Source of the DNA: Octopus vulgaris | Taxonomy: Eukaryota | Reading direction: 5' to 3' | DNA: 64,000 nt | NCBI GenBank assembly: GCA_951406725.2 | Contig: OX597817.1 | Location: 80,104,001 to 80,168,000, forward strand | Shown: piece after piece, positions 9,711 through 55,425 of the stretch | Layout: each line of letters begins with the position of its first letter | How positions within the stretch are numbered: the first letter of the stretch is position 1 | Made by a program: the position numbers and the translations under genes | Notes under the pieces: model-generated | Told to the model about the DNA's origin: nothing | Databases searched by the model: none | What the model saw: the letters and a program-made list of their open reading frames with translations, nothing else

Positions 9711-9940
9711 CAGTGAGCTGGTAGAATCGTTATCATGCCAGGTGAAATGCTTAGTGGTATTTCATCTGCCATTACATTCTGAGTTCAAATTCCACCGAAG
9801 TCAACTTTGCCTTTCAATCATTTCGGGGTCGATAAATTAAGTACCATTTATGCACTGGGGTTGATGTAATCGACTTAATCCCTTTGTCTGTCGTTGTTTG
9901 TCCCCTCTATGTTGAGCACCTTGTGGGCAAAAAAGAAATA
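9711..9940 (+). mobile_element. SINE family 2 (long tail) inserted in the head of a SINE family 1 copy
   Basis: gagctggtagaatcgtta...ctgagttcaaattcc...gcaccttgtgggcaaaaaagaaata, followed directly by agaagcttgcttcc..accacatgg (SINE1 head). Confidence 0.75.
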
Positions 9941-23214: not shown

Positions 23215-24122
23215 ATTTTGACTCAAGGCCAGCAATTTCGGGGGAGAGGATAAGTTAATTACATTGGCCCGATTACATTGACCCCAGTGCTCAACTGGTA
23301 ATTATTATATCGACCCAGAAAGGATGAAAGGCAAACACAACTTCGGTGGAATTCGAACTCATAACGTAAAAATGGACGAAGAATTTTGCCCGGCGTGCGA
23401 AAGATTCTGCCAGTTCGCCGTTTTAAGACAATGTAATATATTAACTGCAAACAACCACTTTCAGGTAATTTATTCATCTAACATGCAAACAATTACTCTC
23501 AGATAATTTATTCATCTAATATGCACATTATATTGGGATGTAGTTAATTTAAGCCAACGCTAGCTTTAACAACACTTTTGGGTGCCTTCAGCAGAATTCA
23601 AACAAACAGTTGGAACTGAACTCTGGTCTGAAGATAACTCATTCTCTTCGCGTCGCTAGTCTCAGATGTTTGAGAAAGTATTGAATGATATCAATATTAG
23701 TTTCAAATTTTGGTAGAAGGCTAGCGATATTAGGAGAGGGGCTAAGTCGATTATATCAACTCCAGTGCTCAACTGGTATTCATTTTATCGACGCCAAAAG
23801 GATGAAAGGCGAAGTCAACCTCGGTGGAATTTGAACTCAGAACATGAAGTCGAACGAAATGTCGCAAGTATTTTACCCGGCATGATTACGATTTTGCCAA
23901 CTCACCGCTTATAACACTAGTTTCAAATTTTGGCACAAGGCTACAAATTTCTAAGTCGATCACATTGAACTCAATGCTTGACTGGTATTTATTTTATTTT
24001 ATCAATCCCGAAAGGATGAGCGACAAAATTGATCTCGGTGGAATTTGAACTCAGAACATAAAAACAGACAGAATGCTACTAAACATTTTGCCTGGTGTGC
24101 TAACGATTCTGCCAGCTCACCA
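23215..24122 (-). mobile_element. Cluster of three SINE family 2 copies
   Basis: Repeated tttcaaattttgg...aactggt...aaaggatgaaaggc...ggaatttgaactcagaac at ~23215, ~23700 and ~23920. Confidence 0.7.
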
Positions 24123-24640: not shown

Positions 24641-24839
24641 TTACTCTCTTTTACTTGTTTCAGTCATTTAACTGCGGCCATGCTGGAGCACCGCCTTTAG
24701 TCGAGCAAATCAACCCCGGGACTTATTCTTTGTAAGCCCAGTACTTATTCTATCGGTCTCTTTTTGCCGAACCGCTAAGTGACGGGGACGTAAACACATC
24801 AGCATCGGTTGTCAAGCAATGCTAGGGGGACAAACACAG

Positions 24840-24874
<35 letters not shown>

Positions 24875-25015
24875 CGACAGGCTTCTTTCAGTTTCCGTCT
24901 ACCAAATCCACTCACAAGGCATTGGTCGGCCCGAGGCTATAGCAGAAGACACTTGCCCAAGATGCCACGCAGTGGGACTGAACCCGGAACCATGTGTTTG
25001 GTTAGCAAGCTACTT
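24641..25015 (-). mobile_element. SINE family 1, 3' portion (host of array A)
   Basis: Follows the SINE1 consensus up to ggttagcaagctactt, where it is interrupted. Confidence 0.9.
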
Positions 25016-27073
25016 TATTTCATTTAATTTGCCACAAGGGCAGCACAAAGAGTAGCTACGGGCTGGACAAGGACATTAATGGATGATGGTGGTGATTGAT
25101 GAATATGGTGATGGGAGAAGTCAGAAAGCGCCCGCCGACTTTTGCTTCTCTAAAACAATGTTTTTTTTTTTTTTTTCAATATTTTACAAAATTTCAAGAA
25201 TTACAAAAATTTCAAAAAATTCCAAAAAATTTTTCACAAAAATTTTAATTAGCAATTTACACTTTTAAAAGTCTCTTCAGAGGCAATAAACCTCTGTCAC
25301 AATGTAACACAATTACAATTTTACGTTACCTGATCGATGAACTCTCTTGCTTTAATGACGCAATCGTCCATCGTCAGGCTTCCGCATACAGGTATGACTT
25401 GCAAGAGATCCTCCGGGAAAGAATTCTCGATCCTGCACATATCATTTTCGAGTAGGACCTCTGCAGCCAGCTGCGAAGGCCACTCGGGATACTCCATGCA
25501 GGACCGAAGTCCCTCCCATTCGTTTCTCTTCCTCCTCTTACGTATTTCATTTTCTATAGTGCCTCCTTTATGGAAGAGGACTACGTAAAATTTCTCCGGC
25601 ATCACAATCGCCGGAGGACACATGGGAGACGCCCTCTGGGTGTTACAGTCCGCTGGTGGCGTTCCGTTCCTCTTTTTCTTTTTACGCTGGGCCTCGGGAG
25701 GTTGAGGTTCCGGTGCTATACGCACCGGGTCCTCTTTTTCTTCCGCAGCCTCCGGTTCCTTTTGTGGGTCGCCATTGCTCCCCACTCTTCTTTTTCTTTT
25801 GGAGGAGGATTTTTCCCCCTCCTCACTTTGTTTCTCTCCCTCCATTGGTGGGGCAGGGAGAGGCTCTGATATTAACTTCTCCAGGATCCTACTCTGGTTC
25901 CTGGGGCAGTTTTTCTTAATGTGGCCGGTCTCCGAACACAGGTGACACTTTGGAGCGCGTCCCTCAAGCATCACCGGATACTTGGACCCGGCCATCTTCA
26001 GGAAGTCCGGCAAAACCAGACTCTTGGCCGACTGGGTCCACAGTGTCAAAGTAGCCTTTGCCCTTTTCCAGTTAGCCGCAGGCTGCATTCTCACGTTTAG
26101 GATCTTGGCGCTACCACTACTCAGACCCCGGCGGATGGAATCTTCCACCCACTCGGGCTCAAAGCCGGGCGGCAGGCCGCAGACCCATAAACGTATCAAT
26201 TTTTCCCCCCTATAGCTTGGGAGAAACAGAATCTCTTCGCCCTCAATGGGCCTACTCGCGAAATCGCAAGCTGCTTTAGGGGAGTCAAACAGCAACCAAA
26301 TCGTTGCGTATTTGGCTCCCCGTTGAATATGTTTAACGGCTGGCATATAGTCTGCCAGCTCGTTCATAATTGTGTCTTTCGGAAAGACCATTATGGTGTC
26401 GAGTGACTTCGAATATGTCCTCAGCACCACTGTCTTTTCCTCAAGTTCGTTCAAATATTTTTTGGGAGGTGTTAATTCCCACACTGTGAAATTCCTTGCC
26501 ATAACGTAAAAAAAGCAGTTCAAGATGTTACAAAATAAATTAGACACAGAAAGGAGAATGAAAAAGGCAACAGAAGGGAAGAAATAAAGTTAAAATGGCA
26601 GTTCAAAAAAAGTTCTTTTTTTTTTTACAAATGAATGATAGACGGAGAAAGAGAGTTCAAATCAGGCAAAGGAATTAATTTTTCTTTTTTTTTTGTTCAC
26701 TTTTTCGGCCAAAAATTGTATTCCAGGCCAAGTATATGGTTGGTACAACACCTTGGTAAATAATCCTTGGTAAATCCGTGGATAACACAACGACAATTTC
26801 AAAAATAATTTTTGTAGACGGAATACGCCGCCTCAAAAACACAATTTTCTTCACACCCGACAACAGGCAGAAAAATTATATCCGGAGCAAAGTGGAGCCT
26901 TATTATCTGCTAAAAAATATTTAATGCTAAAAAACATTAATGCAAGTAATAAAACTTCACTTCGCTCACAAAAATACAAAATTCCTACCTTTAGTCGAGT
27001 CGAAAGTTCAATATTTCACGTTGAAACAACGTGGCAACCGGAGCAGCAAAATAACACGTCCGAACAGTTCAGA
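25016..27073 (-). mobile_element. ORF1-only non-autonomous non-LTR retroelement, family A copy 1
   Basis: Single Gag/ORF1-like ORF, A-rich 3' end, one 5' monomer, flanked by ggttagcaagctactt at 25000-25015 and 27074-27089. Confidence 0.8.
25321..26502 (-). CDS. Tx1/L1-type ORF1 (Gag-like) nucleic-acid-binding protein, 393 aa from MARNFTVW; CCHC zinc knuckle
   Basis: Intact ORF with EGRAPKCHLCSETGHIKKNCP (C-X2-C-X4-H-X4-C), an RRM-like N-terminal half and basic NLS-like tracts; start chosen by alignment with copies 2 and 3. Confidence 0.8.
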   Translation of the reverse strand: MARNFTVWELTPPKKYLNELEEKTVVLRTYSKSLDTIMVFPKDTIMNELADYMPAVKHIQRGAKYATIWLLFDSPKAACDFASRPIEGEEILFLPSYRGEKLIRLWVCGLPPGFEPEWVEDSIRRGLSSGSAKILNVRMQPAANWKRAKATLTLWTQSAKSLVLPDFLKMAGSKYPVMLEGRAPKCHLCSETGHIKKNCPRNQSRILEKLISEPLPAPPMEGEKQSEEGEKSSSKRKRRVGSNGDPQKEPEAAEEKEDPVRIAPEPQPPEAQRKKKKRNGTPPADCNTQRASPMCPPAIVMPEKFYVVLFHKGGTIENEIRKRRKRNEWEGLRSCMEYPEWPSQLAAEVLLENDMCRIENSFPEDLLQVIPVCGSLTMDDCVIKAREFIDQVT

Positions 27074-27373
27074 GGTTAGCAAGCTACTTTATTTTATTTA
27101 ATTTGCCACAAGGGCAGTACACAGATAGTAGCTACGGGCTGGACATAGACATTAATGAATGATGGTGATGAAGTGAAGATGATGATGGGAGAAGACGAAA
27201 GCGCCCGCCGACCCCCGCTTCTCTAAGACAATGTTCAATGAATACATTTAGTAAAATGTTCAAAAATGTTCAGAATGTTCAAATTACATTTTTTCAGAGG
27301 AGGTAATAAACCTCCTCTTCAACATGTTTAAAAATGTTCAAAATGTTCAAAAAGTGTTTAACAATTCTCCCCG

Positions 27374-28612
27374 TCAGGTCCCCGAAGCAAATTGTCTTGC
27401 CGCCTGCAGACAACTCTGCGACGACAAGTCGAGGCCTGCAAAGAGAAAAGTAAAATCTTTCCTCTGAAAGGTCTCTGCGACCCTTGTCAAAATATCTTCC
27501 GTTACTACCTCCGCAGCTACCCGCGGAGGCCATAACGGACTCCTTGAGCCGACCGTGTCCTTGCGTTCTCGGTCACCCAAGCCATTTAGAAACTTTTCCA
27601 CCTTCCCTCCCTTGTGGTAAAGGAGGAGAAATAACTCCTCTTCACAGGAAGGGACCTCACACTGATCCGTCAGTAGCACACTTCCCACTGACGGAGCCCT
27701 GTCCGTGGGTGGCACACATCCCACCCGCGGCTCCGTCGGCGACACAGAAACGTCAGACGTCCGACCTCTCCTTTTTCTCCTCCTTCTTTTGGGTGAGACT
27801 GCTAACCCAGGGGACTCCGTCACCAGACACGGGGGAATGCTATCCCCCTCCGCCCCCTGAGCGTTCTTTGGTGGGCAACCGTTGTTGCTCACCAGCCTCT
27901 TTCTTTTCGTGGAGGCAACCTCCTCCACGACTTCCACCGTCTCCCCCTCCAATGAGGGAACGGCGGGCACCTCTTACTTTTCATGTTCCGGGGCGGCACC
28001 ACGGCCCCAGGGACACTTCTTAATATGTCCAGGCTCCGAGCACCGGTGACACTTGGGGGCGTGTCCCTCAAGCATCACCGGATACTTTGACCCGGCCATC
28101 TTCAAGAAGTCTGGCAAAACCAGACTCTTGGCCGACTGGGTCCACAGAGTCAAAGTAGCCTTTCCCCCTTCCCAGTTAGCCGCAGGCTGCATTTTCACAT
28201 TCAGGATCTTGGCGCTACCACCGCTCAGAACCCGGCGGATGGAATCTTCCACCCACTCGGGCTCAAAGCCGGGCGGCAGGCCACAGACCCATAAACGTAA
28301 CAATTTTTCCCCCTTGTAACTGGGGAGAAACAGAATCTCATCGCCCTCAATGGGCTGGGTTGCAAATTTGCAAGCTGCTTCAGCGGAGTCAAATAGCAAC
28401 CATACCGTTGCGTATTTGACTCCCCGTTGAATATGTTTAACGGCTGGCATATAGTCTGCCAGCTCGTTCACAATGGTGTCTCTCGGAAAAACCATTATGG
28501 TGTCGAGTGACTTTGAGTATGTCCTCAACACCACGGTCTTTTCCTCGATTTCGGGCAAATATTTTTTGGGAGGTGTTAATTCCCACACAGTGAAATTCTT
28601 TGCCTTTGCCAT
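27374..28612 (-). pseudogene. Family A ORF1 with an in-frame premature stop (TAA at 27974-27976)
   Basis: ORFs 27974-28612 and 27374-27970 are in the same frame; HEK*EV here versus HEKEKV in copy 3. Confidence 0.8.
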
Positions 28613-28961
28613 AACGTAAAATACAACAGTTCAAAATGGTAAACTAAAATTAGACACAGAAAGGAGAATGAAAATGCAACAGAAGGGAAGAAATCAGAAT
28701 GGCAGTTCAAAAACGTTTTTACAAATAAATAATAGAAGAGAAAGAGAGTTCAAATCAGGCAAAGGAATTCAGTTTTCTTTTTTCTTTTTTTTTTTTTTTT
28801 TCACACTTCTTCGGCCAAAATGGTAATCCAGGCCAAATGCACTTGGTAAACCTTGGTAAATAATCCTTGGTGAAACCCTTGGTAAATAATCCTTGGTAAT
28901 CCGTGGACAACACAACGACAATTTCAACAATAATTTTTTCAGATGGACTATGCCGCTTCAA

Positions 28962-29538
28962 AAATACAATTTCTTTTCACTCGACACAGGCAGAAAAATT
29001 ATATCTGGAGCAAAGTGGAGCCTTATTATTTGCTAAAAAACATTCATGCAAGTAATAAAACTTCACTAAACTCGCTAAAACATAAAACGCCTACCCGTAG
29101 TCGATTCGAACGTTCAACAATTCACGTTGAAATAACGCGACATCAATACAATTTTCTTTCCACTCGACACAGGCAGAAAAATTATATCCGGAGCAAAGTG
29201 GAGCCTTATTATCTGCTAAAAATATTAAATGCTAAAAAAACATTCATGCAAGTAATAAAACTTCACTCCGCTCGCAAAAATACAAAATTCCTACCTTTAG
29301 TCGATTCGAACGTTCAATATTTCACGTTGAAACAACGCGACATCAATACAATTTTCTTTCCACTCGACACAGGCAGAAGAATTATATCTGGAGCAGAGTG
29401 GAGCCTTATTATCTGCTAAAAAATATTTAATGCTAAAAAACATTAATGCAAGTAATAAAACTTCACTTCGCTCACAAAAATATAAAATTCCTACCTTTAG
29501 TCGAGTCGAAAGTTCAACAATTCACGTTGAAACAACGT
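28962..29538. repeat. Three ~185-200-bp tandem monomers in the 5' UTR of copy A2
   Basis: cgacacaggcagaaaaattatatc.ggagcaaagtggagcc recurs at ~28982, ~29165 and ~29365. Confidence 0.85.
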
Positions 29539-29878
29539 TCATCTGGAGCAGCAAAAAAACACGTCCGAACAGTTCAGAGGTTAGCGAGCTACTTTATTTT
29601 ATTTAATTTGCCACAAGGGCAGTACACAGATAGTAGCTACGGGCTGGACATAGACATTAATGAATGATGGTGATGAAGTGAAGATGATGATGGGAGAAGA
29701 CGAAAGCGCCCGCCGACCCCCGCTTCTCTAAGACAATGTTCAATGAATACATTTAGTAAAATGTTCAAAAATGTTCAGAATGTTCAAATTACATTTTTTC
29801 AGAGGAGGTAATAAACCTCCTCTTCAACATGTTTAAAAATGTTCAAAATGTTCAAAAAGTGTTTAACAATTCTCCCCG

Positions 29879-31120
29879 TCAGGTCCCCGAAGCAAATTGT
29901 CTTGCCGCCTGCAGACAACTCTGCGACGACAAGTCGAGGCCTGCAAAGAGAAAAGTAAAATCTTTCCTCTGAAAGGTCTCTGCGACCCTTGTCAAAATAT
30001 CTTCCGTTACTACCTCCGCAGCTACCCGCGGAGGCCATAACGGACTCCTTGAGCCGACCGTGTCCTTGCGTTCTCGGTTACCCAAGCCATTTAAAAACTT
30101 TTCCACCTTCCCTCCCTTGTGGTAAAGGAGGAGAAATAACTCCTCTTCACAGGAAGGGACCTCACACTGATCCGTCAGTAGCACACTTCCCACTGACGGA
30201 GCCCTGTCCGCGGGTGGCACACATCCCACCCGCGGTTCCGTCGGAGACACAGAAACGTCAGACGTCCGACCTCTCCTTTTTCTCCTCCTTTTTTTGGTGG
30301 AGACTGCTAACCCAGGGGACTCCGTCACCAGACACGGGGGAATGCTATCCCCCTCCGCCCCCTGAGCGTTCTTTGGTGGGCAACCGTTGTTGCTCGCCAG
30401 CCTCTTTCTTTTCGTGGAGGCAACCTCCTCCACGACTTCCACCGTCTCCCCCTCCAATGAGGGGACGGCGGGCACCTTTTCCTTTTCATGTTCCGGTGCG
30501 GCACCACGGCCCCCGGGACACTTCTTCTTAATATGTCCAGGCTCCGAGCACCGGTGACACTTGGGGGCGTGTCCCTCAAGCATCACCGGATACTTGGATC
30601 CGGCCATCTTCAAGAAGTCTGGCAAAACCAGACTCTTGGCCGACTGGGTCCACAGAGTCAAAGTAGCCTTACCTCCTTCCCAGTTAGCCGCAGGCTGCAT
30701 TTTCACATTCAGGATCTTGGCGCTACCACCGCTCAGACCCCGGCGGATGGAATCTTCCACCCACTCGGGCTCAAAGCCGGGCGGCAGGCCACAGACCCAT
30801 AAACGTAACAATTTTTCCCCCTTGTAACTGGGGAGAAACAGAATCTCATCGCCCTCAATGGGCTGGGTTGCAAATTTGCAAGCTGCTTCAGCGGAGTCAA
30901 ATAGCAACCATACCGTTGCGTATTTGACTCCCCGTTGAATATGTTTAACGGCTGGCATATAGTCTGCCAGCTCGTTCACAATGGTGTCTCTCGGAAAAAC
31001 CATTATGGTGTCGAGTGACTTTGAATATGTCCTCAACACCACGGTCTTTTCCTCGAGTTCGTGCAAATATTTTTTGGGAGGTGTTAATTCCCACACAGTG
31101 AAATTCTTTGCCTTTGCCAT
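29879..31120 (-). CDS. Tx1/L1-type ORF1 (Gag-like) protein, 413 aa, CCHC zinc knuckle
   Basis: Intact ORF with EGHAPKCHRCSEPGHIKKKCP and a KKRRRKRR basic tract. Confidence 0.8.
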   Translation of the reverse strand: MAKAKNFTVWELTPPKKYLHELEEKTVVLRTYSKSLDTIMVFPRDTIVNELADYMPAVKHIQRGVKYATVWLLFDSAEAACKFATQPIEGDEILFLPSYKGEKLLRLWVCGLPPGFEPEWVEDSIRRGLSGGSAKILNVKMQPAANWEGGKATLTLWTQSAKSLVLPDFLKMAGSKYPVMLEGHAPKCHRCSEPGHIKKKCPGGRGAAPEHEKEKVPAVPSLEGETVEVVEEVASTKRKRLASNNGCPPKNAQGAEGDSIPPCLVTESPGLAVSTKKRRRKRRGRTSDVSVSPTEPRVGCVPPADRAPSVGSVLLTDQCEVPSCEEELFLLLYHKGGKVEKFLNGLGNRERKDTVGSRSPLWPPRVAAEVVTEDILTRVAETFQRKDFTFLFAGLDLSSQSCLQAARQFASGT

Positions 31121-31440
31121 AACGTAAAATACAACAGTTCAAAATGGTAAACTAAAATTAGCCACAGAAAGGAGAATGAAAAAATGCAAAAGAAAGGGAA
31201 GAAATAAAATTAAAAATGGCAGTTCAAAAAAGTTTTTACAAATAAATAATAGACAGAGAAAGAGAGTTCAATTCAGACAAAGGAATTCAGTTTTTTTTTT
31301 TTCCACTTCTTCGGCCAAAAATTGTAATCCAGGCCAAATGCACTGTTGGTAAAACCCTTGGTAAATAATCCTTGGTAATCCGTGGACAACACAACGACAA
31401 TTTCAACAATAATTTTTTCAGACGGACTATGCCGCTTCAA

Positions 31441-31835
31441 AAATACAATTTCTTTTCACTCGACACAGGCAGAAAAATTATATCCGGAGCAAAGTGGAGC
31501 CTTATTATTTGCTAAAAAATATTAAATGCTAAAAAACATTCATGCAAGTAATAAAACTTCACTAAACTCGCTAAAACATAAAACGCCTACCCGTAGTCGA
31601 TTCGAACGTTCAACAATTCACGTTGAAACAACGCGACATCAATACAATTTTCTTTTCACTCGACACAGGCAGAAAAATTATATCTGGAGCAAAGTGGAGC
31701 TCTATCACTTGCTAAAAAATATTAAATGCTAAAAAACATTCATGCAAGTAATAAAACTTCACTTCGCTCGCAAAAATACAAAGTTCCTACCTTTAGTAGA
31801 GACGAAAGTTCAACAATTCACGTTGAAACAACGCG
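31441..31835. repeat. Two ~200-bp tandem monomers in the 5' UTR of copy A3
   Basis: cgacacaggcagaaaaatta at 31461 and 31661. Confidence 0.85.
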
Positions 31836-31869
31836 ACATTTGCCGGAGCAAAAAACAACACGTCTGTCT

Positions 31870-31906
31870 GGTAAGAAGTTACTTACCACACAGCCACTCC
31901 TGCGCC
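31870..31906 (-). mobile_element. SINE family 1 5' head remnant (A-box side), completing the SINE split by array A
   Basis: ggtaagaagttacttaccacacagccactcctgcgcc matches the SINE1 head seen at 48292-48329. Confidence 0.85.
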
Positions 31907-32745
31907 TATTAGTTTCATATCTTTAAATCTTACTCTTTGAATATATTGGAGTTCTTCCCCAGAACATAAAGAAATGAAGAGTGCATTACGTGAAAGACCA
32001 TAAAGAATTCCTTTCTGAAATGTAAGGTAAACAATTCAAACCCACCTTGCCATTTTATGGTTAAATCAATTATCTTTTGTTTTCATATTCAACCACAAAA
32101 GAATTAAGACTTATCATAAAGTAACAAAGATTCCGTAGCAGACTCAGTGAGTGAAATAAAATTGCTATCAATTTTTTAAGCTTTCTTTTTCAGGAAGTGA
32201 TTTAATTTATATCTATCTATCTATCAATTTTTTTATCTAGCTACCTGTGACACTTTCTGCAGCACATGACCAAATTCTATCCTAAAAACGAGCGCACTAG
32301 TTTAAAAATTAAAAAATACAAAATTTAATACGCATATGTTCGGACATACAAGGTAACACCTCAACACTTTACAATGCAAATATATCTGGCCGATATATTA
32401 AAAATTACGAAATCAACCGATCTCTTACAAAATACAACATCCCTACATTACTGGCTCAAGGTTGTGTATCTTTTTTCTCTCAGAAGCGTAAAACATTTCC
32501 CACAATTTTGAATAAAAGATTGGAATTGGCGAAATCTCACAGAAAATTTATTGATATTTGAAGATATTCCAGATACCAACTGGCTAAAATATTTCCTCTC
32601 TTACATATTGGATTTCACATATCATAAAAATTGCTACATATTGAACGAAAAGCATTCAGTGTTTATCAAATAGAAACTTTATCAAAAAATCGCCAGTATT
32701 TTTTTTTTGTGTGTTCTACAAAAAAGTCGTATTTTTATATTATCG

Positions 32746-34463
32746 ATTTCTTTATTACCCACTAGGGGCGACACAGAGGTGGACAGCAAAAGACATGGGG
32801 ACATAGAACATTTATAATTAAAATTTATGAAAAATGAATTGTTAGGTGAAAGAAAATGATATTATGAAAGCGATACCGACGGCCCCATCCGTCAGCATCA
32901 CTTACCTGTCCTTTGTTTTTCATCGTCCCTTGAATGTTCTTTGCCAATACGAATAAATTCCATATCCATTCTTACTCCGAAATACTCATTCATATTTTCC
33001 ACGAATTCATCGCTCATTCTTATATCTTTCACCTCCCAATTCTCTCTTTCACACCTCCCCATAAACTCACCTATGTTCTTCTTTTCAATCACAGCATACC
33101 TAGTCTCTCCAACATCATACCATTTATACTCTTCCATTAGACTTTTAACTTCCCTCTGTTCAGTCATAGTACAAATGTACGGCCTGGGTTCGATTTCAAT
33201 CTCTTGTGTGTGTGTATTCTTTTTTTTTTTTGTTTTCTTGTTGGGGGGAGCGGGTGGGTTCAATGTCTGCATGGATAGGGTGGGACTCAGAGGGTGTGGG
33301 TGGTTTTGGGGTAGATTGGAGTTCCATATTATTTTCTTTTCCACGTATTCTTCTCTTCCTCTTACTTCCAGCTTCCTTCCATTTCTGTGTATTCTCTTCC
33401 TCTGTTTCCTTCTCCTCTGGTTTCTGCTTCTCTCTCTCTGGTTCGGAATCCGTTTCTTTCCCTGGGGGAGGGCAGAAGGCTCTTATGTGACCCCTCAGGC
33501 CACACTTGTAACAACGTGGAGCCCTGCCCTCCACCCACACTCTCATGATCACGTCTCCCAGTCTGATGCTTTCCGTCAGGTCCACCAGTACCTCGGTCTC
33601 TGCCTGTACGTTCAGCTCCACTGTTACGCCTCTCCAGCCCTCGGACTTAACCGAGGCATGGAGAATATCCACCTCGTCCTCGTGGCCGCTGATCACAGCC
33701 GCCACAATCCATTCTGCCTCCACGTTTGGTGGCACTCCCTCCACCCTTATTCGTGTAATCCTCCTGTTTAAATACGTAGGTAATAGGGTTACCTTTTCTG
33801 ACTTCACCGCCTTCGCCGCCATCTTCCTCGCTGCAGACTCAGTTTTGAAATGCACAACTACGGTACCGTACTTGGATCCTCGAGTCAGAAAATTTATTTC
33901 CTCCTCAGTTCTTCGCAGGGCTTCCTCTATCCATTCCATGGTTACAACTTCTACCCTCTTCCTTTCGTTTGCGAACACCCTGTAAATAATGGTCCTCTTG
34001 TCATACCATTCTTTTCTCCTGGGTGTCGGTGATAGTTCCACCTCACCGCTTTCCTTTTTCATGTATTTCTGGTAACTTGCCAACTTGGCCATGTCGACCC
34101 TTTTCTCTTCCGCCTTCTTGGTTACACCGGCATAGGTATAACCCAGCTTCTTTTCCAAATTCCTTGCTGCCATTTCTAGCTCCTTCTCAGACGTAGGCAG
34201 GTCTGATAAAGACTCGAAAACTCCAGCCTTTTCTTCCATCAGCTTCATTGCAATTGCCTGTTCCAGTTCCTCATCTGTCGTGGACAAGTCTGTTAGAGAC
34301 TCATAGTCCATTTCCTTTCTGTCTGACAGACCGAAAACGGCCGCCAAAACAGAAAAAGTGTAACGCGCTGAACGAGCGAAACGCGAAACCGCGTCAACGC
34401 CGTTCAGAATTTCCACAACAACAACAACGCTTTTTGTTCTTTTTTACCGAATTTCAGGAGCCG
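32746..34463 (-). mobile_element. ORF1-only retroelement, family B copy 1
   Basis: First unit of a five-copy head-to-tail array; 3' end ...gtgggtaataaagaaat on the minus strand. Confidence 0.8.
32898..34311 (-). pseudogene. Family B ORF1, one frameshift in a homopolymer near 33220-33250
   Basis: ORFs 33196-34416 and 32898-33344 together reconstruct the 472-aa protein of copies 4 and 5. Confidence 0.75.
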
Positions 34464-36184
34464 TATTTCTTTATTACCCACTAAGGGGCTACGAAGAGTG
34501 GCTGACATCACAAAACATGGGGACATAGAACATTATAATTAAACTTTATGAACATGAATTGTTAAACGAAAAAAAATGATAAAATGAAAGCGATACCAAC
34601 GGCCCCGTCCGTCAGCATCACTTACCTGTCCTTTGTTTTTCATAGTCACTTGAATTTTCTTTGCCAATACGAATAAATTCCATATCCATTCTTACTCCGA
34701 AATACTCATTCATATTTTCCACGAATTCATCGCTCATTCTTATATCTTTCACCTCCCAATTCTCCCTTTCACACCTCCCCATAAACCCACCTATGTTCTT
34801 TTTTTCAATCACAGCATACCTAGTCTCTCCAACATCATACCGTTTATACTCTTCCATTAGACTTTTAACTTCCCTCTGTTCAGTCATAGTACAAATGTAC
34901 GGCCTGGGTTCGATTTCAATCTCTTGTGTGTGTGTATTCTTTTTTTTTTTTGTTTTCTTGTTGGGGGGAGCGGGTGGGTTCAATGTCTGCATGGATAGGG
35001 TGGGACTCAGAGGGTGTGGGAGGTTTTGGGGTAGATTGGAGTTCCATATTATTTTGTTTTTTTCCACATATTCTTCTCTTCCTCTTACTTCCAGCTTCCT
35101 TCCATTTCTGTGTATTCTCTTCCTCTGTTTCCTTCTCCTCTGGTTTCTGCTTCTCTCTCTCTGGTTCGGGATCCATTTCTATCCCTGGGGAGGGCAGAAG
35201 GCTCTTATGTGACCCCTCAGGCCACACTTGTAACAACGTGGAGCCCTGCCCTCCACCCACACTCTCATGATCATTTCTCCCAGTCTGATGCTTTCCGTCA
35301 GGTCCACCAGTACCTCGGTCTCTGCCTGTACGTTCAGCTCCACTGTTACGCCTCTCCAGCCCTCGGACTTAACCGAGGCATGGAGAATATCCACTTCGTC
35401 CTCGTTGCCGCTGATCACAGCCGCCACAATCCATTCTGCCTCCACGTTTGGTGGCACTCCCTCCACCCTTATTCGTGTAATCCTCCTGTTTAAATACGTA
35501 GGTAACAGTGTTACCTTTTCCGACTTCACCGCCTTCGCTGCCATCTTCCTCGCTGCAGATTCACTTTTAAAGTGCACAACTACGGTCCCGTACTTGGATC
35601 CTCGAGTCAGAAAATTTATTTCCTCCTCAGTTCTTCGCAGGGCTTCCTGTATCCATTCCATGGTTACAACTTCTACCCTCTTCCTTTCGTTTGCGAACAC
35701 CCTGTAAACAATGGTCCTCTTATCATACCATTCTTTTCTCCTGGGTGTCGGTGATAGTTCCACCTCACCGCTTTCCTTTTTCATGTATTTCTGGTAACTT
35801 GGCAACTTGGCCATGTCGACCCCTTTCTCTTCCGCCTTCTTGGTAACACCGGCATAGGTATAACCCAGCTTCTCTTCCAATTCCCTTGCTGCCGTTTCTA
35901 GCTCCTTCTCAGACGTAGGCAAGTCTGATAAAGACTCGAAAACTCCAGCCTTTTCTTCCATCAGCTTCATTGCAATTGCCTGTTCCAGTTCCTCATCTGT
36001 CGTGGACAAGTCTGTTAAAGACTCATAGTCCATTTCCTTCTGTCTGACAGACCGAAAACGGCCGCCAAAACAGAAAAAGTGTAACGCGCTGAACGAGCGA
36101 AACGCGAAACCGCGTCAACGCCGTTCAGAATTTCCACAACAACAACAACGCTTTTTGTTCTTTTTTACCGAATTTCAGGAGCCG
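34464..36184 (-). mobile_element. ORF1-only retroelement, family B copy 2
   Basis: Junctions caggagccg|tatttctttattaccc at both ends. Confidence 0.8.
34618..36033 (-). pseudogene. Family B ORF1, two homopolymer frameshifts
   Basis: Split over ORFs 35179-36033, 34916-35260 and 34618-35067. Confidence 0.75.
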
Positions 36185-37820
36185 TATTTCTTTATTACCC
36201 ACTAAGGGGCTACGAAGAGTGGCTGACATCACAAAACATGGGGACATAGAACATTATAATTAAACTTTATGAACATGAATTGTTAAACGAAAAAAATGAT
36301 AAAATGAAAGCGATACCAACGGCCCCGTCCGTCAGCATCACTTACCTGTCCTTTGTTTTTCATAGTCACTTGAATGTTCTTTGCCAATACGAATAAATTC
36401 CATATCCATTCTTACTCCGAAATACTCATTCATATTTTCCACGAATTCATCGCTCATTCTTATATCTTTCACCTCCCAATTCTCCCTTTCACACCTCCCC
36501 ATAAACCCACCTATGTTCTTTTTTTCAATCACAGCATACCTAGTCTCTCCAACATCATACCGTTTATACTCTTCCATTAGACTTTTAACTTCCCTCTGTT
36601 CAGTCATAGTACAAATGTACGGCCTGGGTTCGATTTCAATCTCTTGTGTGTGTGTATTCTTTTTTTTCTTTTGTTTTCTTGTTGGGGGGGAGCGGGTGGG
36701 TTCAATGTCTGCATGGATAGGGTGGGACTCAGAGGGTGTGGGAGGTTTTGGGGTAGATTGGAGTTCCATATTATTTTCTTTTTTTCCACATATTCTTCTC
36801 TTCCTCTTACTTCCAGCTTCCTTCCATTTCTGTGTATTCTCTTCCTCTGTTTCCTTCTCCTCTGGTTTCTGCTTCTCTCTCTCTGGTTCGGGATCCATTT
36901 CTTTCCCTGGGGAGGGCAGAAGGCTCTTATGTGACCCCTCAGGCCACACTTGTAACAACGTGGAGCCCTGCCCTCCACCCACACTCTCATGATCACTTCT
37001 CCCAGTCTGATGCTTTCCGTCAGGTCCACCAGTACCTCGGTCTCTGCCTGTACGTTCAGCTCCACTGTTACGCCTCTCCAGCCCTCGGACTTAACCGAGG
37101 CATGGAGAATATCCACTTCGTCCTCGTGGCCGCTGATCACAGCCGCCACAATCCATTCTGCCTCCACGTTTGGTGGCACTCCCTCCACCCTTATTCGTGT
37201 AATCCTCCTGTTTAAATACGTAGGTAACAGTGTTACCTTTTCCGACTTCACCGCCTTCGCTGCCATCTTCCTCGCTACAGATTCACTTTTAAAGTGCACA
37301 ACTACGGTCCCGTACTTGGATCCTCGAGTCAGAAAATTTATTTCCTCCTCAGTTCTTCGCAGGGCTTCCTCTATCCATTCCATGGATACAACTTCTACCC
37401 TCTTCCTTTCGTTTGCGCACACCCTGTAAACAATGGTCCTCTTATCATACCATTCTTTTCTCCTGGGTGTCGGTGATAGTTCCACCTCACCGCTTTCCTT
37501 TTTCATGTATTTCTGGTAACTTGGCAACTTGGCCATGTCGACCCCTTTCTCTTCCGCCTTCTTGGTAACACCGGCATAGGTATAACCCAGCTTCTCTTCC
37601 AATTCCCTTGCTGCCGTTTCTAGCTCCTTCTCAGACGTAGGCAAGTCTGATAAAGACTCGAAAACTCCAGCCTTTTCTTCCATCAGCTTCATTGCAATTG
37701 CCTGTTCCAGTTCCTCATCTGTCGTGGACAAGTCTGTTAGAGACTCATAGTCCATTTCCTTCTGTCTGACAGACCGAGAACGGCCGCCAAAACAGAAAAA
37801 GTGTAACGCGCTGAACGAGC
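36185..37820 (-). mobile_element. ORF1-only retroelement, family B copy 3 (more 5'-truncated)
   Basis: 5' end stops at ...ctgaacgagc (37820), inside the 5' UTR hairpin. Confidence 0.8.
36338..37755 (-). pseudogene. Family B ORF1, one frameshift just after the zinc knuckle
   Basis: The G-run near 36908 is one base short; split over ORFs 36604-37755 and 36338-36982. Confidence 0.75.
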
Positions 37821-37822
37821 TG

Positions 37823-39585
37823 ATTTTTTATTACCCACTAAGGGGCGACACAGAGGGGGACAACAAAAGACATGGGGACATAGAACATTATAATTAAACT
37901 TTATGAACATGTATTGTTAAACGAAAAAAAATGATAAAATGAAAGCAATACCAACGGCCCCGTCCGTCAGCATCACTTACCTGTCCTTTGTTTTTCATAG
38001 TCACTTGAATGTTCTTTGCCAATACGAATAAATTCCATATCCATTCTTACTCCGAAATACTCATTCATATTTTCCACGAATTCATCGCTCATTCTTATAT
38101 CTTTCACCTCCCAATTCTCCCTTTCACACCTCCCCATAAACTCACCTATGTTCTTCTTTTCAATCACAGCATACCTAGTCTCTCCAACATCATACCATTT
38201 ATACTCTTCCATTAGACTTTTAACTTCCCTCTGTTCAGTCATAGTACAAATGTACGGCCTGGGTTCGATTTCAATCTCTTGTGTGTGTGTATTCTTTTTT
38301 TTCTTTTGTTTTCTTGTTGGGGGGGAGCGGGTGGGTTCAATGTCTGCATGGATAGGGTGGGACTCAGAGGGTGTGGGAGGTTTTGGGGTAGATTGGAGTT
38401 CCATATTATTTTCTTTTTTTCCACATATTCTTCTCTTCCTCTTACTTCCAGCTTCCTTCCATTTCTGTGTATTCTCTTCCTCTGTTTCCTTCTCCTCTGG
38501 TTTCTGCTTCTCTCTCTCTGGTTCGGGATCCATTTCTTTCCCTGGGGGAGGGCAGAAGGCTCTTATGTGACCCCTCAGGCCACACTTGTAACAACGTGGA
38601 GCCCTGCCCTCCACCCACACTCTCATGATCACTTCTCCCAGTCTGATGCTTTCCGTCAGGTCCACCAGTACCTCGGTCTCTGCCTGTACGTTCAGCTCCA
38701 CTGTTACGCCTCTCCAGCCCTCGGACTTAACCGAGGCATGGAGAATATCCACTTCGTCCTCGTGGCCGCTGATCACAGCCGCCACAATCCATTCTGCCTC
38801 CACGTTTGGTGGCACTCCCTCCACCCTTATTCGTATAATCCTCCTGTTTAAATACGTAGGTAACAGTGTTACCTTTTCCGACTTCACCGCCTTCGCTGCC
38901 ATCTTCCTCGCTGCAGATTCACTTTTAAAGTGCACAACTACGGTCCCGTACTTGGATCCTCGAGTCAGAAAATTTATTTCCTCCTCAGTTCTTCGCAGGG
39001 CTTCCTGTATCCATTCCATGGTTACAACTTCTACCCTCTTCCTTTCGTTTGCGAACACCCTGTAAACAATGGTCCTCTTATCATACCATTCTTTTCTCCT
39101 GGGTGTCGGTGATAGTTCCACCTCCCCGCTTTCCTTTTTCATGTATTTCTGGTAACTTGGCAACTTGGCCATGTCGACCCCTTTCTCTTCCGCCTTCTTG
39201 GTTACACCGGCATAGGTATAACCCAGCTTCTCTTCCAATTCCCTTGCTGCCATTTCTAGCTCCTTCTCAGACGTAGGCAAGTCTGATAAAGACTCGAAAA
39301 CTCCAGCCTTTTCTTCCATCAGCTTCATTGCAATTGCCTGTTCCAGTTCCTCATCTGTCGTGGACAAGTCTGTTAAAGACTCATAGTCCATTTCCTTCTG
39401 TCTGACAGACCGAAAACGGCCGCCAAAACAGAAAAAGTGCAACGCGCTGAACGAGCGAAACGCGAAACCGCGTCAACGCCGTTCAGAATTTCCACAACAA
39501 CAACAACGCTTTTTGTTCTTTTTTACCGAATTTCAGGAGCCGAAAAAATATGACTTCTTGTCACTATTTAAATCTCTTTTTTTTA
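37823..39585 (-). mobile_element. ORF1-only retroelement, family B copy 4 (longest 5' end)
   Basis: 5' end extends to ...cactatttaaatct. Confidence 0.8.
37973..39391 (-). CDS. Tx1/L1-type ORF1 (Gag-like) protein, 472 aa from MDYESL; acidic helical N-terminus, RRM-like region, CCHC knuckle
   Basis: Intact ORF with VEGRAPRCYKCGLRGHIRAFCP; aligns with family A (RGSKYGTVVVHF vs RGAKYATIWLLF; LLPTY...IRVEGVPP...EW vs FLPSY...LWVCGLPP...EW). Confidence 0.85.
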   Translation of the reverse strand: MDYESLTDLSTTDEELEQAIAMKLMEEKAGVFESLSDLPTSEKELEMAARELEEKLGYTYAGVTKKAEEKGVDMAKLPSYQKYMKKESGEVELSPTPRRKEWYDKRTIVYRVFANERKRVEVVTMEWIQEALRRTEEEINFLTRGSKYGTVVVHFKSESAARKMAAKAVKSEKVTLLPTYLNRRIIRIRVEGVPPNVEAEWIVAAVISGHEDEVDILHASVKSEGWRGVTVELNVQAETEVLVDLTESIRLGEVIMRVWVEGRAPRCYKCGLRGHIRAFCPPPGKEMDPEPEREKQKPEEKETEEENTQKWKEAGSKRKRRICGKKENNMELQSTPKPPTPSESHPIHADIEPTRSPPTRKQKKKKNTHTQEIEIEPRPYICTMTEQREVKSLMEEYKWYDVGETRYAVIEKKNIGEFMGRCERENWEVKDIRMSDEFVENMNEYFGVRMDMEFIRIGKEHSSDYEKQRTGK

Positions 39586-41330
39586 TTACCCACTAAGGGG
39601 CTACGAAGAATGGCGGACATAACAAAACATGGGGACATAGAACATTATAATTAAACTTTATGAAAATGAATTGTTAAATGAAAAAATGATTAAATGAAAG
39701 CGATACCAACGGCCCCGTCCGTCAGCATCACTTACCTGTCCTTTGTTTTTCATAGTCACTTGAATGTTCTTTGCCAATACGAATAAATTCCATATCCATT
39801 CTTACTCCGAAATACTCATCCATATTTTCCACGAATTCATCGCTCATTCTTATATCTTTCACCTCCCAATTCTCGCATTCACACATCACCATAAAGTCAC
39901 CTATGTTCTTCTTTTCAATCACAGCATACCTAGTCTCACCAACATCATACCATTTATACTCTTCCATTAAACTTTTAACTTCTTTCTGTTCAGTCATAGT
40001 ACAAATGTACGGCCTGATATCGATTTCAATCTCTTGTGTGTGTGTATTCTTTTTTTCTTTTGTTTTCTTGTTGGGGGGGGAGCGGGTGGGTTCAATGTCT
40101 GCATGGATAGGGTGGGATTCAGAGGGTGTGGGAGGTTTTGGGGTAGATTGGAATTCCATATTATTTTCTTTTTTTCCACATATTCTTCTCTTCCTCTTAC
40201 TTCCAGCTTCCTTCCATTTCTGTGTATTCTCTTCCTCTGTTTCCTTCTCCTCTGGTTTCTGCTTCTCTCTCTCTGGTTCGGGATCCATTTCTTTCCCTGG
40301 GGGAGGGCAGAAGGCTCTTATGTGACCCCTCAGGCCACACTTGTAACAACGTGGAGCCCTGCCCTCCACCCACACTCTCATGATCACTTCTCCCAGTCTG
40401 ATGCTTTCCGTCAGGTCCACCAGTACCTCGGTCTCTGCCTGTACGTTCAGCTCCACTGTTACGCCTCTCCAGCCCTCGGACTTAACCGAGGCATGGAGAA
40501 TATCCACTTCGTCCTCGTGGCCGCTGATCACAGCCGCCACAATCCATTCTGCCTCCACGTTTGGTGGCACTCCCTCCACCCTTATTCGTGTAATCCTCCT
40601 GTTTAAATACGTAGGTAACAGTGTTACCTTTTCCGACTTCACCGCCTTCGCTGCCATCTTCCTCGCTGCCGATTCACTTTTAAAGTGCACAACTACGGTC
40701 CCGTACTTGGATCCTCGAGTCAGAAAATTTATTTCCTCCTCAGTTCTTCGCAGGGCTTCCTCTATCCATTCCATGGATACAACTTCTACCCTCTTCCTTT
40801 CGTTTGCGCACACCCTGTAAACAATGGTCCTCTTATCATACCATTCTTTTCTCCTGGGTGTCGGTGATAGTTCCACCTCACCGCTTTCCTTTTTCATGTA
40901 TTTCTGGTAACTTGGCAACTTGGCCATGTCGACCCCTTTCTCTTCCGCCTTCTTGGTTACACCGGCATAGGTATAACCCAGCTTCTCTTCCAATTCCCTT
41001 GCTGCCATTTCTAGCTCCTTCTCAGACGTAGGCAAGTCTGATAAAGACTCGAAAACTCCAGCCTTTTCTTCCATCAGCTTCATTGCAATTGCCTGTTCCA
41101 GTTCCTCATCTGTCGTGGACAAGTCTGTTAAAGACTCATAGTCCATTTCCTTCTGTCTGACAGACCGAAAACGGCCGCCAAAACAGAAAAAGTGCAACGC
41201 GCTGAACGAGCGAAACGCGAAACCGCGTCAACGCCGTTCAGAATTTCCACAACAACAACAACGCTTTTTGTTCTTTTTTACCGAATTTCAGGAGCCGAAA
41301 AAATATGACTTCTTGCCACTATTTAAATCT
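39586..41330 (-). mobile_element. ORF1-only retroelement, family B copy 5 (longest 5' end)
   Basis: Same 5' terminus as copy 4 (atttaaatct at 41321-41330). Confidence 0.8.
39728..41146 (-). CDS. Tx1/L1-type ORF1 (Gag-like) protein, 472 aa
   Basis: Intact ORF, near-identical to copy 4, with a more divergent C-terminal domain. Confidence 0.85.
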   Translation of the reverse strand: MDYESLTDLSTTDEELEQAIAMKLMEEKAGVFESLSDLPTSEKELEMAARELEEKLGYTYAGVTKKAEEKGVDMAKLPSYQKYMKKESGEVELSPTPRRKEWYDKRTIVYRVCANERKRVEVVSMEWIEEALRRTEEEINFLTRGSKYGTVVVHFKSESAARKMAAKAVKSEKVTLLPTYLNRRITRIRVEGVPPNVEAEWIVAAVISGHEDEVDILHASVKSEGWRGVTVELNVQAETEVLVDLTESIRLGEVIMRVWVEGRAPRCYKCGLRGHIRAFCPPPGKEMDPEPEREKQKPEEKETEEENTQKWKEAGSKRKRRICGKKENNMEFQSTPKPPTPSESHPIHADIEPTRSPPNKKTKEKKNTHTQEIEIDIRPYICTMTEQKEVKSLMEEYKWYDVGETRYAVIEKKNIGDFMVMCECENWEVKDIRMSDEFVENMDEYFGVRMDMEFIRIGKEHSSDYEKQRTGK

Positions 41331-41502
41331 GATTCTGGTTCTTTGCCAACCAGTCAAATCTTGACGACTATGTTTGAAGTGCTAAAGAATTTTTTGCGTA
41401 TTTATTGTCATGCTAATTCCCTACTTCCTACATTTGAATAATCCACAGTGTAAAACACTGATTTTACAAATAATCTTTTAATATTATTTGTGTATATAAA
41501 AG

Positions 41503-42285
41503 TGGGAGCTGGCAGAAATGCTTATCGGCATTTCGTCTGCCGTTACATTCTGAGTTCAAATTCCGCCGAGGTCGACTTTGCCTTTCATCCTTTCGGGGTC
41601 GATAAATTAAGTACCAGTTACGTACTGGGGTCGATGTAATCGACTTAACCCCTGTGTCTGTCCTTGTTTGTCTCCTCTGTGTTTAGCCCCTTGTGGGCAA
41701 TAAAGAAATAAGAATCGTTAGCACGCCAGGCGAAATTCTTAGCGGTATTTCGTCTGTCTTTAGGTTCTGAGTTCAAATTCCATCGAGGTCGATTTTCCCT
41801 TTCGTCCTTTCGGGGTCTATAAATTAAGTACCAGTTGCGTACTGGGGTCGATGTATCGACTAGCCGCTTCCCCCAAAACTTCGGACCTTGTGCCTAGAGC
41901 AGAAATGAATATTATTTGTATATATGTTGCCGTGCCGGGAAAATTCTTTGAGGCATTTCTTCTGATTTTACTTTCTGGGTTCAAATGCTGCCGGTGTCCA
42001 CTTTGCCTTTTATCATTTCGGGGTGAATAAAATAAGTGCCAGTTGATTTAATCGACTTAACCCCTCCCACAAACTTGTTGACTTTGTGCAAAAATTTGAA
42101 CCAAACGTTATTTGAGTATATAAGGCAACGAGCTGGTGGGGTTGTTAGCATGCTGGGCAAAATGCTCAGCTGTATTTTGCCTTTAATCCTTTCGGGGTCG
42201 ATAAAATGAGTACCGATTGATCGTTGGGATCAATGTAATCGACTTCCCGCTCGATCGAACTTTAAAGCCAAAATTTGAAATTTGA
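41503..42285 (+). mobile_element. Cluster of SINE family 2 copies (long-tail copy followed by short-tail copies)
   Basis: Repeated ttctgagttcaaattcc...ttcggggtcgataaattaagtaccagtt; tail gtttagccccttgtgggcaataaagaaata at 41681-41710. Confidence 0.8.
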
Positions 42286-44309: not shown

Positions 44310-45022
44310 CTATTTCTTTACTACCTACAAGGGTCTAAACACAGTAGGTACAAACAAGGACAGACAAACAGTGCGTAACTGGTACTTATTTAATCACCCC
44401 GAAAGGATGAAAGGCAAAGTCGACCTCGACGGAATTTGAACTCAAGGAGCTAAACACAGAGGGTACAAACAAGGACAGACAAACGGATTAAGTCGATTAC
44501 ATCGACCCCAGTGCGTAACTGGTACTTATTTAATCGACCCCGAAAGGATGAAAGGTAAAGTCGACCTCGACGGAATTTGAACTCAGAACGTAGCGGTAGA
44601 CGAAATACCTATTTCTTTACTACCCACAAGGAGCTAAGCACAGAGGGTACAAACAAGGACAGACAAACGGATTAAGTCGATTACATCTCGACCCCAGTGC
44701 GTAACTGGTACTTATTTAATCGACCCCAAAAGGATGAAAGGCAAAGTCGACCTCGACGGAATTTGAACTCAGAGCGTAACGGCAGACGAAATACCTATTT
44801 CTTTATTACCCACAAGGGGCTAAACACAGAGGGAACAAACAAGGACAGACATAGGTATTAAGTCGATTACATCGACCCCAGTTCGTAACTGGTACTTAAT
44901 TTATCGACCCCGAAAGGATGAAAGGCAAAGTCGACCTCGGCGGAATTTGAACTCACAACGTAACACAGACGAAATACCGCTAGGCATTACGCCCGGCGTG
45001 CTAACGTTTCTGCCAGCTTGCC
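44310..45022 (-). mobile_element. Head-to-tail tandem of four SINE family 2 long-tail units
   Basis: tatttcttta.tacccacaagg.gctaa.cacagaggg.acaaacaaggacagac repeated at ~44311, ~44445 (partial), ~44610 and ~44796. Confidence 0.85.
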
Positions 45023-54592: not shown

Positions 54593-54981
54593 CCTTAAAC
54601 CATAATTCGGATATTGAAAATACAATTGATTTAGATTTCAATGAAACACACCGGGTTAAAAAATATACAGAATGTCGCATATCAATTATCCTGTTTGTAT
54701 AGGTATTAAGGACTCCTTCAGTGAGAGAAATGGTCTGTTCGGTTCATATGAAAAATAAAGAGATCATAGGGCCAAAAATTAAAAAAAACATGCAAGAAAG
54801 TACCTGAAACACCACATGGTTAGTAACTGTTGTCCATGTAAACTAATATGAGAGAAAATGGCAATGATATTGTAAGTTTTTAGGGAAAGGGTTGTCAGAT
54901 ATTCAAGAACCTCTCTTTGACTCTCTTGCATGTTCTGCATACGCAAATCATAATCCATTCTTATACAGTGATTATATAAAG

Positions 54982-55425
54982 CAGCGAGTTAGCAGAATCT
55001 TTGACATCCCGAGTAAAATACTAAGCAGCATTTTGTCCGTCTTCACGTTGTGAGTTCAAATTCCACCGAGGTTGACTTTGCCTTTCATCTCTTTCGGGGT
55101 CGATAAAATAAGTACCAGTTGAGTACTGGGGTCGATGTAATCGACTACCCCCTCCCCAAAATTTCAGACCATGAGCCTATAGTAGAATGGATTATTAGTA
55201 GTTATATTACGGCGGCGAGCTGGCAGAATCTTCAGCATGCCAGGTAAAAAGCTTAGCGGCATTTCATCCATCTTTACGTTCTGAGTTCAAATTCTGCCGC
55301 GGTTGACTTTGTCTTTCATTTCTTTCGGGGTCAATAAAATAAGTACCATTCGAGTACTAGGGTCAATGTAATCGACTTACTCCCTCTCCCGAAATTGTTG
55401 GCCTTGTGCCAAAATTTGAAACAGT
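54982..55425 (+). mobile_element. Two tandem SINE family 2 (short-tail) copies
   Basis: gcgagctggcagaatc...gagttcaaattc...ggggtc.ataaaataagtacca occurs twice. Confidence 0.75.

Follow-up and report, generated by a model that had tools for sequence, protein, structure and literature searches.

Layout of the locus

The 64-kb window (the whole stretch of Octopus vulgaris DNA that was analysed) is AT-rich and crowded with microsatellites. On its minus strand lie two tandem arrays, one of three family A units of 2.1-2.5 kb each (25016-31869) and one of five family B units of 1.64-1.76 kb each (32746-41330), together with copies of three SINEs (Table 1), for which SINE1, SINE2 and SINE3 are working labels. 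No ORF2 lies between ORF1 and the 3' end in either family, the 3' UTRs being 283-304 nt long in A3 and A1 and 150-151 nt in B4 and B5.

Table 1. Positions of the repeat families and their 3' hairpins within the window
Feature	Position	Strand	Remarks
SINE3 tail	3940..3978	+	hairpin 3953-3965; own body 3448-3551, split off by an insertion
Decayed SINE3 hairpins	4092-4104 and 52737-52749	- (both)	
SINE2 S2a	9697..9940	+	hairpin 9916-9928; SINE1 fragment directly after
Two tandem SINE3 copies	23072..23420	-	16-18-nt duplication between them; hairpins 23219-23231, 23085-23096
Two tandem SINE3 copies	23698..24121	-	hairpins 23931-23943, 23711-23723
Host SINE1, 3' part	24641..25015	-	93.7% identity to the intact copy 47926-48307
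16-nt SINE1-head target copy after A1	25000..25015	-	repeats 27074-27089, 29579-29594; diverged 5' copy 31870-31884
A1	25016..27073	-	ORF1 25321-26502, 393 aa; hairpin TGCC-CTTGT-GGCA at 25030-25042
A2	27090..29578	-	ORF 27974-28612, 212 aa, early stop; three ~200-bp 5' UTR monomers; hairpin 27104-27116
A3	29595..31869	-	ORF1 29879-31120, 413 aa; hairpin 29609-29621
Host SINE1 head, 5' part (tRNA-like)	31870..31911	-	upstream of the A array
B1	32746..34463	-	ORF 33196-34311, 371 aa, frameshifted relative to B4/B5; hairpin 32757-32769, then AATAAAGAAAT
B2	34464..36184	-	ORF 35179-36033, 284 aa, frameshifted; hairpin 34476-34489
B3	36185..37822	-	5'-truncated by ~120 nt; ORF 36604-37755, 383 aa, frameshifted; hairpin 36197-36210
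B4	37823..39576	-	full length; ORF1 37973-39391, 472 aa; 150-nt 3' UTR; hairpin 37833-37846
B5	39577..41330	-	full length; ORF1 39728-41146, 472 aa; tandem RRM + CCHC; hairpin 39588-39601
SINE2 S2b	41500..41710 (start approximate)	+	nested in a SINE3 head; hairpin 41686-41698
Tandem SINE3 copies	41711..42282	+	~19-nt AT-rich duplication between them; hairpins 41883-41895, 42079-42091
SINE2 tandem array	44311..45022	-	~186-nt units; hairpins 44808-44820, 44622-44634, 44323-44335
SINE3b copy	54980..55190 (ends approximate)	+	hairpin 55166-55178, outer A-U pair
SINE3 copy	55211..55423	+	SINE2-type head and body, A-type tail; hairpin TGGC-CTTGT-GCCA at 55399-55411
Fragment C	57435..57559	+	5'-truncated 3' end; hairpin AGCC-CTGTGT-GGCT at 57536-57549; between microsatellites

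Family A consists of two diverged subfamilies, both lacking ORF2 and 85% alike over their last 145 nt. Its array sits inside the head of a SINE1, and the same 16-nt stretch of that head follows every A unit; the 5' copy is a few positions off compared with the three downstream copies. These target copies and tandem sandwiches were seen at one locus, with three units. The 5' UTR contains ~200-bp monomers (29024-29537, 31442-31839) that vary in number by unit and resemble L1 promoter monomers, and the ORF1 of A1 ends in a splice-donor-like AG/GTAACG (25321-25330, minus strand). One O. sinensis protein matched the family A ORF, at 58% (1 hit among 7999 candidates).

The units of family B have three different 5' start points and two 3' variants. 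B2 and B3 are 99.1% identical, share both a junction and a frameshift, and probably arose by tandem duplication. Five O. vulgaris gene models were matched by the family B ORF (5 hits among 6514 candidates), and its last ~87 codons are an exon in five gene models of this species, the contigs of which have five different lengths; in all B units, the end of ORF1 is splice-donor-like (AG/GTAAGT, 39728-39740, minus strand). Proteins P0001 and P0002 contain three copies each of this last exon, which suggests that family B arrays exist elsewhere. Within the window, tblastn with the ORF1 relatives detected no more ORF1 remnants outside the arrays.

The body shared between SINE2 and SINE3 gave 20 matches in the window, most of them with a tail other than that of SINE2; these were termed SINE3. 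The SINE2 bodies are 93% alike, a value inflated by the origin of three of the five bodies from one array, versus 79% for the SINE3 bodies. SINE3 would then be the older and SINE2 the younger, a constant head and body having carried first an A-type and then a B-type tail. The SINE2 array is flanked by a 10-nt duplication (45023-45032 and 44301-44310), and the insertion between the body and tail of the first SINE3 (3560-3940, plus strand) is what we take to be a CR1-like 3' fragment ending in (TTA)n. Fragment C, which does not figure in the earlier note on this DNA, is by its sequence the terminal part of yet another family that has this tail, here present without a SINE body.

The SINE1 fragment that follows S2a (9940-10323, plus strand) starts within 1 nt of the family A insertion site (profile column 24 versus 25). 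Placement of S2a inside a complete SINE1 at that site was considered and rejected, the 5' half being undetectable upstream (57% of windows score as well). SINE1 itself (47925-48010 and 24636-24720, both minus strand) ends in another hairpin, CAGTC-AAAT-GACTG, and because this differs, SINE1 probably has another partner, even though it is the target of family A.

Elsewhere in the window, a 994-bp direct duplication of 99.9% identity (5196-6188 and 6323-7316) is possibly an assembly artefact; it contains long runs of (TA)n and one inverted segment. The ORF fragments inside it are presumably RTE-like 3' ORF pieces, and a 62-bp tandem repeat (6.3 copies, 4801-5193) lies in the 3' UTR of the RTE-like element. 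Two Penelope-like remnants (7613-8972 and 61896-63138) have bounding inverted repeats of 219 and 243 nt, the second with a weak GIY-YIG match, and a third, decayed remnant was apparently present, by eye, at ~16500-17700. A Tc1/mariner-type DDE_3 transposase remnant (13786-14205, minus strand, E 1.8e-11) and a probable host exon (22120-22293, minus strand; 58.6% match to the LDL-receptor class A portion of protein P0125) were also seen, as was a broken ORF at 49100-50050 (plus strand), which has no Pfam match and which we take to resemble a Helitron protein. Rfam and ARAGORN scans of the window gave no hits.

ORF1 proteins of families A and B

The ORF1 proteins of the two families are 27% identical over 231 aa. 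An AlphaFold model of the family B core, based on a 20-sequence alignment (pLDDT 90), showed two RRM-like domains and matched tandem-RRM proteins (Foldseek best E 5.6e-5; against La, VIA Z 8.6, rmsd 2.8, 83 aligned). A single CCHC knuckle follows the RRMs (zf-CCHC, below the Pfam cut-off), the atlas neighbours were CCHC/ZCCHC3-like, and PDB sequence searches returned matches to the zinc knuckle and low-complexity stretches only. A and B are ORF1-only non-LTR retroelements that resemble HAL1 and HeT-A, with an ORF1 of nucleic-acid-binding type and no ORF2. According to the available excerpts of PMC5203782, a tandem RRM plus CCHC defines the Type I ORF1p, and finding one outside mammals, in an animal, fits the Tx1 clade, although the RRM/CCHC architecture is not exclusive to Tx1.

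An ORF1 profile retrieved 723 representatives at E<=0.001, some of which are knuckle repeats only. A phylogeny with 41 rows comprised A1 and those 40 of the 62 aligned rows that had >=75% coverage, a limit that P0014, the nearest relative of B, did not reach. Within it, A and B fell inside one supported group of 26 rows and were not sisters. No RT domain was found in the 62 relatives, and a weak search for a long ORF1-ORF2 fusion yielded none among 7998 candidates of 1092-3115 aa. Pfam gave no APE or RT hit in 133 of the 263 stop-to-stop segments of the window (>=55 aa, outside the arrays), the other 130, which mostly overlap SINEs or microsatellites, having been left out by eye; the 133 produced only one DDE_3 and one GIY-YIG match. 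Comparison of the A1 and A3 ORF1s over 202 codons gave dS 0.32, dN 0.077 and dN/dS 0.24. This purifying selection could predate the loss of ORF2, yet neither subfamily has an ORF2, and the two have the similar 3' ends described above.

A common 3' tail and its hairpin

The 3' ends that the earlier note had quoted for SINE2, family A and family B were all present, in place and on the proper strand; its further claim, that they represent one common tail, was well borne out for SINE2 and B and only weakly for A. A profile of the 87-nt SINE2 3' end aligned to B1 at model positions 28-86 (E 2.7e-7, ~59 nt) and reached the three A tails at E 0.14-0.18. The SINE2-B alignment begins where the shared SINE body stops, covers the last ~59 nt of B and does not enter the body. 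Five SINE2 tails, combined into a profile, retrieved fragment C (57518-57559, E 1.3e-7) as well as every one of the five B tails (E 3e-7 to 2.5e-3), and no family A tail at E<=10. Conversely, a profile of two A tails found fragment C at E 0.003 and SINE2 at E 0.2-0.3. A covariance model of SINE2 and B gave E 1.5e-4 for fragment C, while the A tails came out at E 0.68-1.4, amid chance hits. A model of A, SINE3 and C recognised only one of the SINE2 tails (E 5.6) and none of the B tails. At 16740-16764 (minus strand) the A/SINE3 tail models gave a match (E 0.006-0.03) in which only two of the four stem pairs form; no SINE body was found upstream of it.

In pairwise comparisons with 12250 50-mers of the window, S2b exceeded the whole null for four of the four B tails tested, both A tails and fragment C, while A and B tails scored above the whole null in some pairs only. 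SINE3 against A scored high in the null distribution without exceeding all of it in every case (0-132 of 13408 windows). The sequence upstream of the stem, taken alone, showed no significant similarity from one family to another (14-44 or more of 9996 null windows). A degenerate tail pattern, which was read from these very copies and misses family A, SINE3 and copy B4, matched 10 times with <=3 mismatches versus 0 in 100 shuffles; a tail pattern had no match in bacterial or archaeal genomes, where contamination alone could match. Two subgroups of tails can be told apart, SINE2/B/C and A/SINE3, between which C forms a bridge. The SINE2-B-C link is strong. On sequence alone the link of family A is weak, but it falls at the exact 3' terminus; since an E value near 1 over 128 kb on precisely the last 40 nt of an element is unlikely to arise by chance, A was accepted as a more distant relative, and tail homology for A and SINE3 is put forward with moderate strength.

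All of these tails have a 4-bp GC-rich stem, a CUUGU-type loop and then an A-rich end. SINE3 tails read TGGC-CTTGT-GCCA followed by AAATTTGAAA and those of family A TGCC-CTTGT-GGCA followed by AATTAAATGAAA, so that the loop is identical and one C-G/G-C pair is swapped in register, a compensatory change. In fragment C and in the SINE3 copy at 55166-55178, the outer U-A is replaced by A-U. In the nine copies of A, B and C every stem cell can pair (36 of 36); for SINE2 this holds for 17 of 20. In a loop-anchored table of 25 copies, 87 of 100 stem cells were paired, versus 28-48 when slid by 1-2 nt; the 13 unpaired cells all belong to SINE copies (10 of 44 in SINE3, three in SINE2), and three of the four pairs vary on both sides. 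At the level of lineages, 23 of 24 cells pair (permutation p 3e-4, not a strict probability because the lineages are related; whole-arm permutation, 2 of 720). Anchoring on the loop was done by hand, the covariation amounts to about three or four independent events, and the difference between the SINE2/B and A stems can also be read as a paired indel. A MAFFT alignment of 13 A, SINE3 and C tails had 82.7% of cells paired, a value reached in none of 500 shuffles, and a covariation of 0.36, which none of 500 shuffles attained either, versus <=0.11 when slid, with two of the four pairs changing on both sides. Another alignment mixed the registers of SINE2 and B, and its pair counts were not used as evidence. 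The earlier note's short stem, with pairing kept in the A variant, was recovered, and the stem covariation that it had named as a test was found in both the loop-anchored table and the MAFFT alignment.

A descriptor consisting of a C-G-closed 4-bp stem, a CTTGT loop within one edit and an A-rich end, written after the tails had been seen, gave 13 hits in the window, all at the 3' ends of elements, against a mean of 0.05 in 60 shuffles. The loop lies at an equal distance from the 3' end in five lineages. Thermodynamically the stem is marginal: the hairpin was part of the minimum free energy structure in only 4 of 12 61-nt tails (z -2.7 to +0.24), its pair probabilities vary with sequence context, and RNAalifold predicted no pairs from an automatic 14-sequence alignment. 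A longer lower stem (UCU/AGA), present in some of the minimum free energy folds, was discarded, being broken in B4 and B5 and without covariation. Stem-covarying 3' ends of this kind are as expected of an RT-recognition signal, an interpretation that the tail sequences support, and because the stem is kept by compensatory change, it is probably a cis signal bound by a partner ORF2.

The likeness of A and SINE3 to SINE2 and B might also reflect convergence upon an A-rich end resembling a poly(A) signal, preceded by a chance 4-bp stem. The weak held-out scores for A and SINE3 and the AATAAA within the SINE2/B/C tail would fit such convergence, but the A tail has no AATAAA, the loop is identical and equally placed in five lineages, and the descriptor hits far exceed their chance level, which makes convergence highly improbable. 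Alternatively, B and perhaps A gained a SINE tail by template switching or SINE insertion and carry it as a passenger of an RT with relaxed requirements for an A-rich end. SINE2 is abundant in the window, and excerpts of the respective papers document template switches between SINE and LINE (PMC4824008) and describe L1-clade RTs as mostly relaxed (PMC3747384). A tail acquired in this way, however, would not be expected to show two-sided stem changes, its homology ends at the start of the SINE body and never enters it, and fragment C has the tail without that body; a passenger tail is distinctly unlikely.

Probable partners and comparison with known systems

Marks of retrotransposition were seen in the differing 5' ends, in the target copies between A units and in the duplications of the SINE2 and SINE3 arrays. 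Target duplications are 16 nt in family A (the SINE1 head), 10 nt in SINE2, ~16-19 nt and AT-rich in SINE3, and ~4 nt at most in family B. As targets, duplication lengths and ages differ between families, several related partner LINEs fit better than one. The explanation we favour, with somewhat better than even confidence, is that A and B are HAL1/HeT-A-like elements, that the tails derive from the 3' UTRs of related LINEs, and that at least two partners, probably of the L1/Tx1 group, are involved. Among the segments, relatives and longer candidates scanned, no RT-encoding element with this tail turned up. Families A and B have kept an ORF1 of Type I between a 5' UTR and a short 3' UTR and lack ORF2, and the tails of A, B, SINE2, SINE3 and C would descend from the 3' UTRs of one group of related LINEs. 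The ORF2 of an autonomous relative would bind the hairpin in trans before target-primed reverse transcription, nick its own target and reverse-transcribe from the A-rich end. Membership of the partners in the L1/Tx1 group is suggested by the type of ORF1, the 10-19-nt duplications and the tandem arrays at a fixed target, and at least two partner families would have different endonuclease targets. That of family A would cut the fixed site in the SINE1 head, repeated insertion producing the A array, while the SINE head and body would have exchanged an A-type tail (SINE3) for a B-type tail (SINE2).

The earlier note had proposed that one LINE drives SINE2, A and B. The related 3' ends and the covarying stem speak for that part of the proposal which links the three families, but a single driver is less likely. 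A single autonomous LINE family would have to tolerate every stem variant. In its favour, the loop and A-rich end are common to the families, fragment C bridges the tail subgroups, and the SINE1 sequence after S2a starts almost exactly at the A target. That shared site is one-sided, however, because the SINE1 5' half is undetectable upstream of S2a; moreover, the two tail subgroups barely retrieve each other, the target duplications differ, the A and B ORF1s are strongly diverged and not sisters, and SINE2 copies are much more alike than SINE3 copies. A single driver is accordingly judged unlikely.

A non-Tx1 partner (Dong-R4, CR1, I/Nimb or Proto2) could likewise have supplied the tail, a Type I ORF1 having been joined to a foreign 3' end. 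The AT-rich targets of SINE3 would suit such a partner, but the CR1-like and RTE-like 3' ends in the window, clade labels that we presume from their sequence, have other tails, (TTA)n and (TGA)n, and two ORF1 lineages would both need the same swap. Excerpts of the literature point both ways: O. vulgaris has abundant and active Dong-R4 and CR1 elements (PMC13282606) and mollusc stem-loop tails are best documented with CR1/L2 partners (PMC4824008), but I and Proto2 are rare in this species (PMC13282606). We regard a non-Tx1 origin as very unlikely, and return to partners of the L1/Tx1 group. A bolder and rather doubtful extension is that an animal L1/Tx1 lineage recognises the hairpin stringently, the stem variants under a constant CUUGU loop serving as a code of addresses by which each SINE or ORF1-only element is allotted to an RT family, these families differing in their DNA targets. 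ORF1-only elements might then persist under purifying selection as sources of an ORF1p that helps or competes, one of them breeding in the heads of another SINE.

In the literature searched, no account of these elements or of their tail was found, nor any ORF1-only elements with a tandem-RRM and CCHC ORF1; Repbase, Dfam, the repeat library of PMC13282606, the supplements of other papers and subscription papers, which lie outside that search, may list them. The accessible parts of PMC3531059, PMC10294476, PMC9115989 and PMC5804259 hold nothing on this tail. Octopus tRNA-derived SINEs, OK, OR1 and OR2, were reportedly characterised by Ohshima and Okada in 1994; compared by description only, they resemble SINE1, SINE2 and SINE3 in their tRNA-like heads and common central body. 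In O. vulgaris, SINEs account for 11.7% of the genome and are mostly unclassified, and 80 L1-Tx1 families, 13 of them recently active, are recorded (PMC13282606). A structural tail pointing to partner LINEs would classify a large share of these SINEs. The L1 clade is the textbook exception to tail sharing, and a hairpin-dependent animal L1/Tx1 lineage, if true, would bear on stringent recognition as the ancestral state; in the portion available of a 2013 survey, three SINEs were known to have L1-clade tails, as against >800 LINEs, those named being from plants and a green alga (PMC3747384). The natural compensatory stem variants provide ready-made test pairs.

HAL1 (half-L1), HeT-A and Ag-Sponge are ORF1-only non-autonomous LINEs (PMC5786205, PMC5753468, both in part) and, like A and B, consist of a 5' UTR, ORF1 and a 3' end with no ORF2. 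They are described there as having originated repeatedly and independently, with an ORF1p proposed to co-assemble with partner proteins, and the same would apply here. They derive, however, from mammalian L1, Jockey and CR1, whereas A and B have a cephalopod host and a tandem-RRM plus CCHC ORF1; family A, in addition, occupies a fixed SINE-head site at this locus, and the tail here is a covarying hairpin held in common with SINEs. Closer in its targets is the crocodilian Tx1-Mar/SINEU system, in which, as far as the excerpts of PMC4494074 go, passengers are assigned to Tx1 partners, insertion takes place into another repeat, tandem copies sandwich a target duplication, and different Tx1 families have different passengers. 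The link in that system lies in common targets and 5' heads, with no matching LINE 3' end indicated for SINEU-1 in this text, while in the octopus elements it is a common 3' hairpin that points to a probable partner.

For the tail itself, the nearest parallels are UnaL2/UnaSINE, the bivalve CR1/L2 SINEs and maize LINE1-1_ZM/ZmSINE, in which, in the descriptions available, SINE and LINE both end in a small stem-loop whose loop is conserved and whose stem shows compensatory changes, and tails are exchanged under a constant SINE body. Tail sharing, compensatory changes and tail exchange are likewise reported in excerpts on mollusc SINEs with CR1/L2 partners (PMC4824008, PMC4758252). In those pairs the partners have been identified, whereas SINE2 is matched here to the non-autonomous family B and the partner is a deduced one. 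The mechanism proposed is of a known kind. New to the literature searched is the combination, in which a covarying hairpin is common to ORF1-only elements that are deeply diverged and probably of L1/Tx1 origin, to the tails of two SINEs and to one more family.
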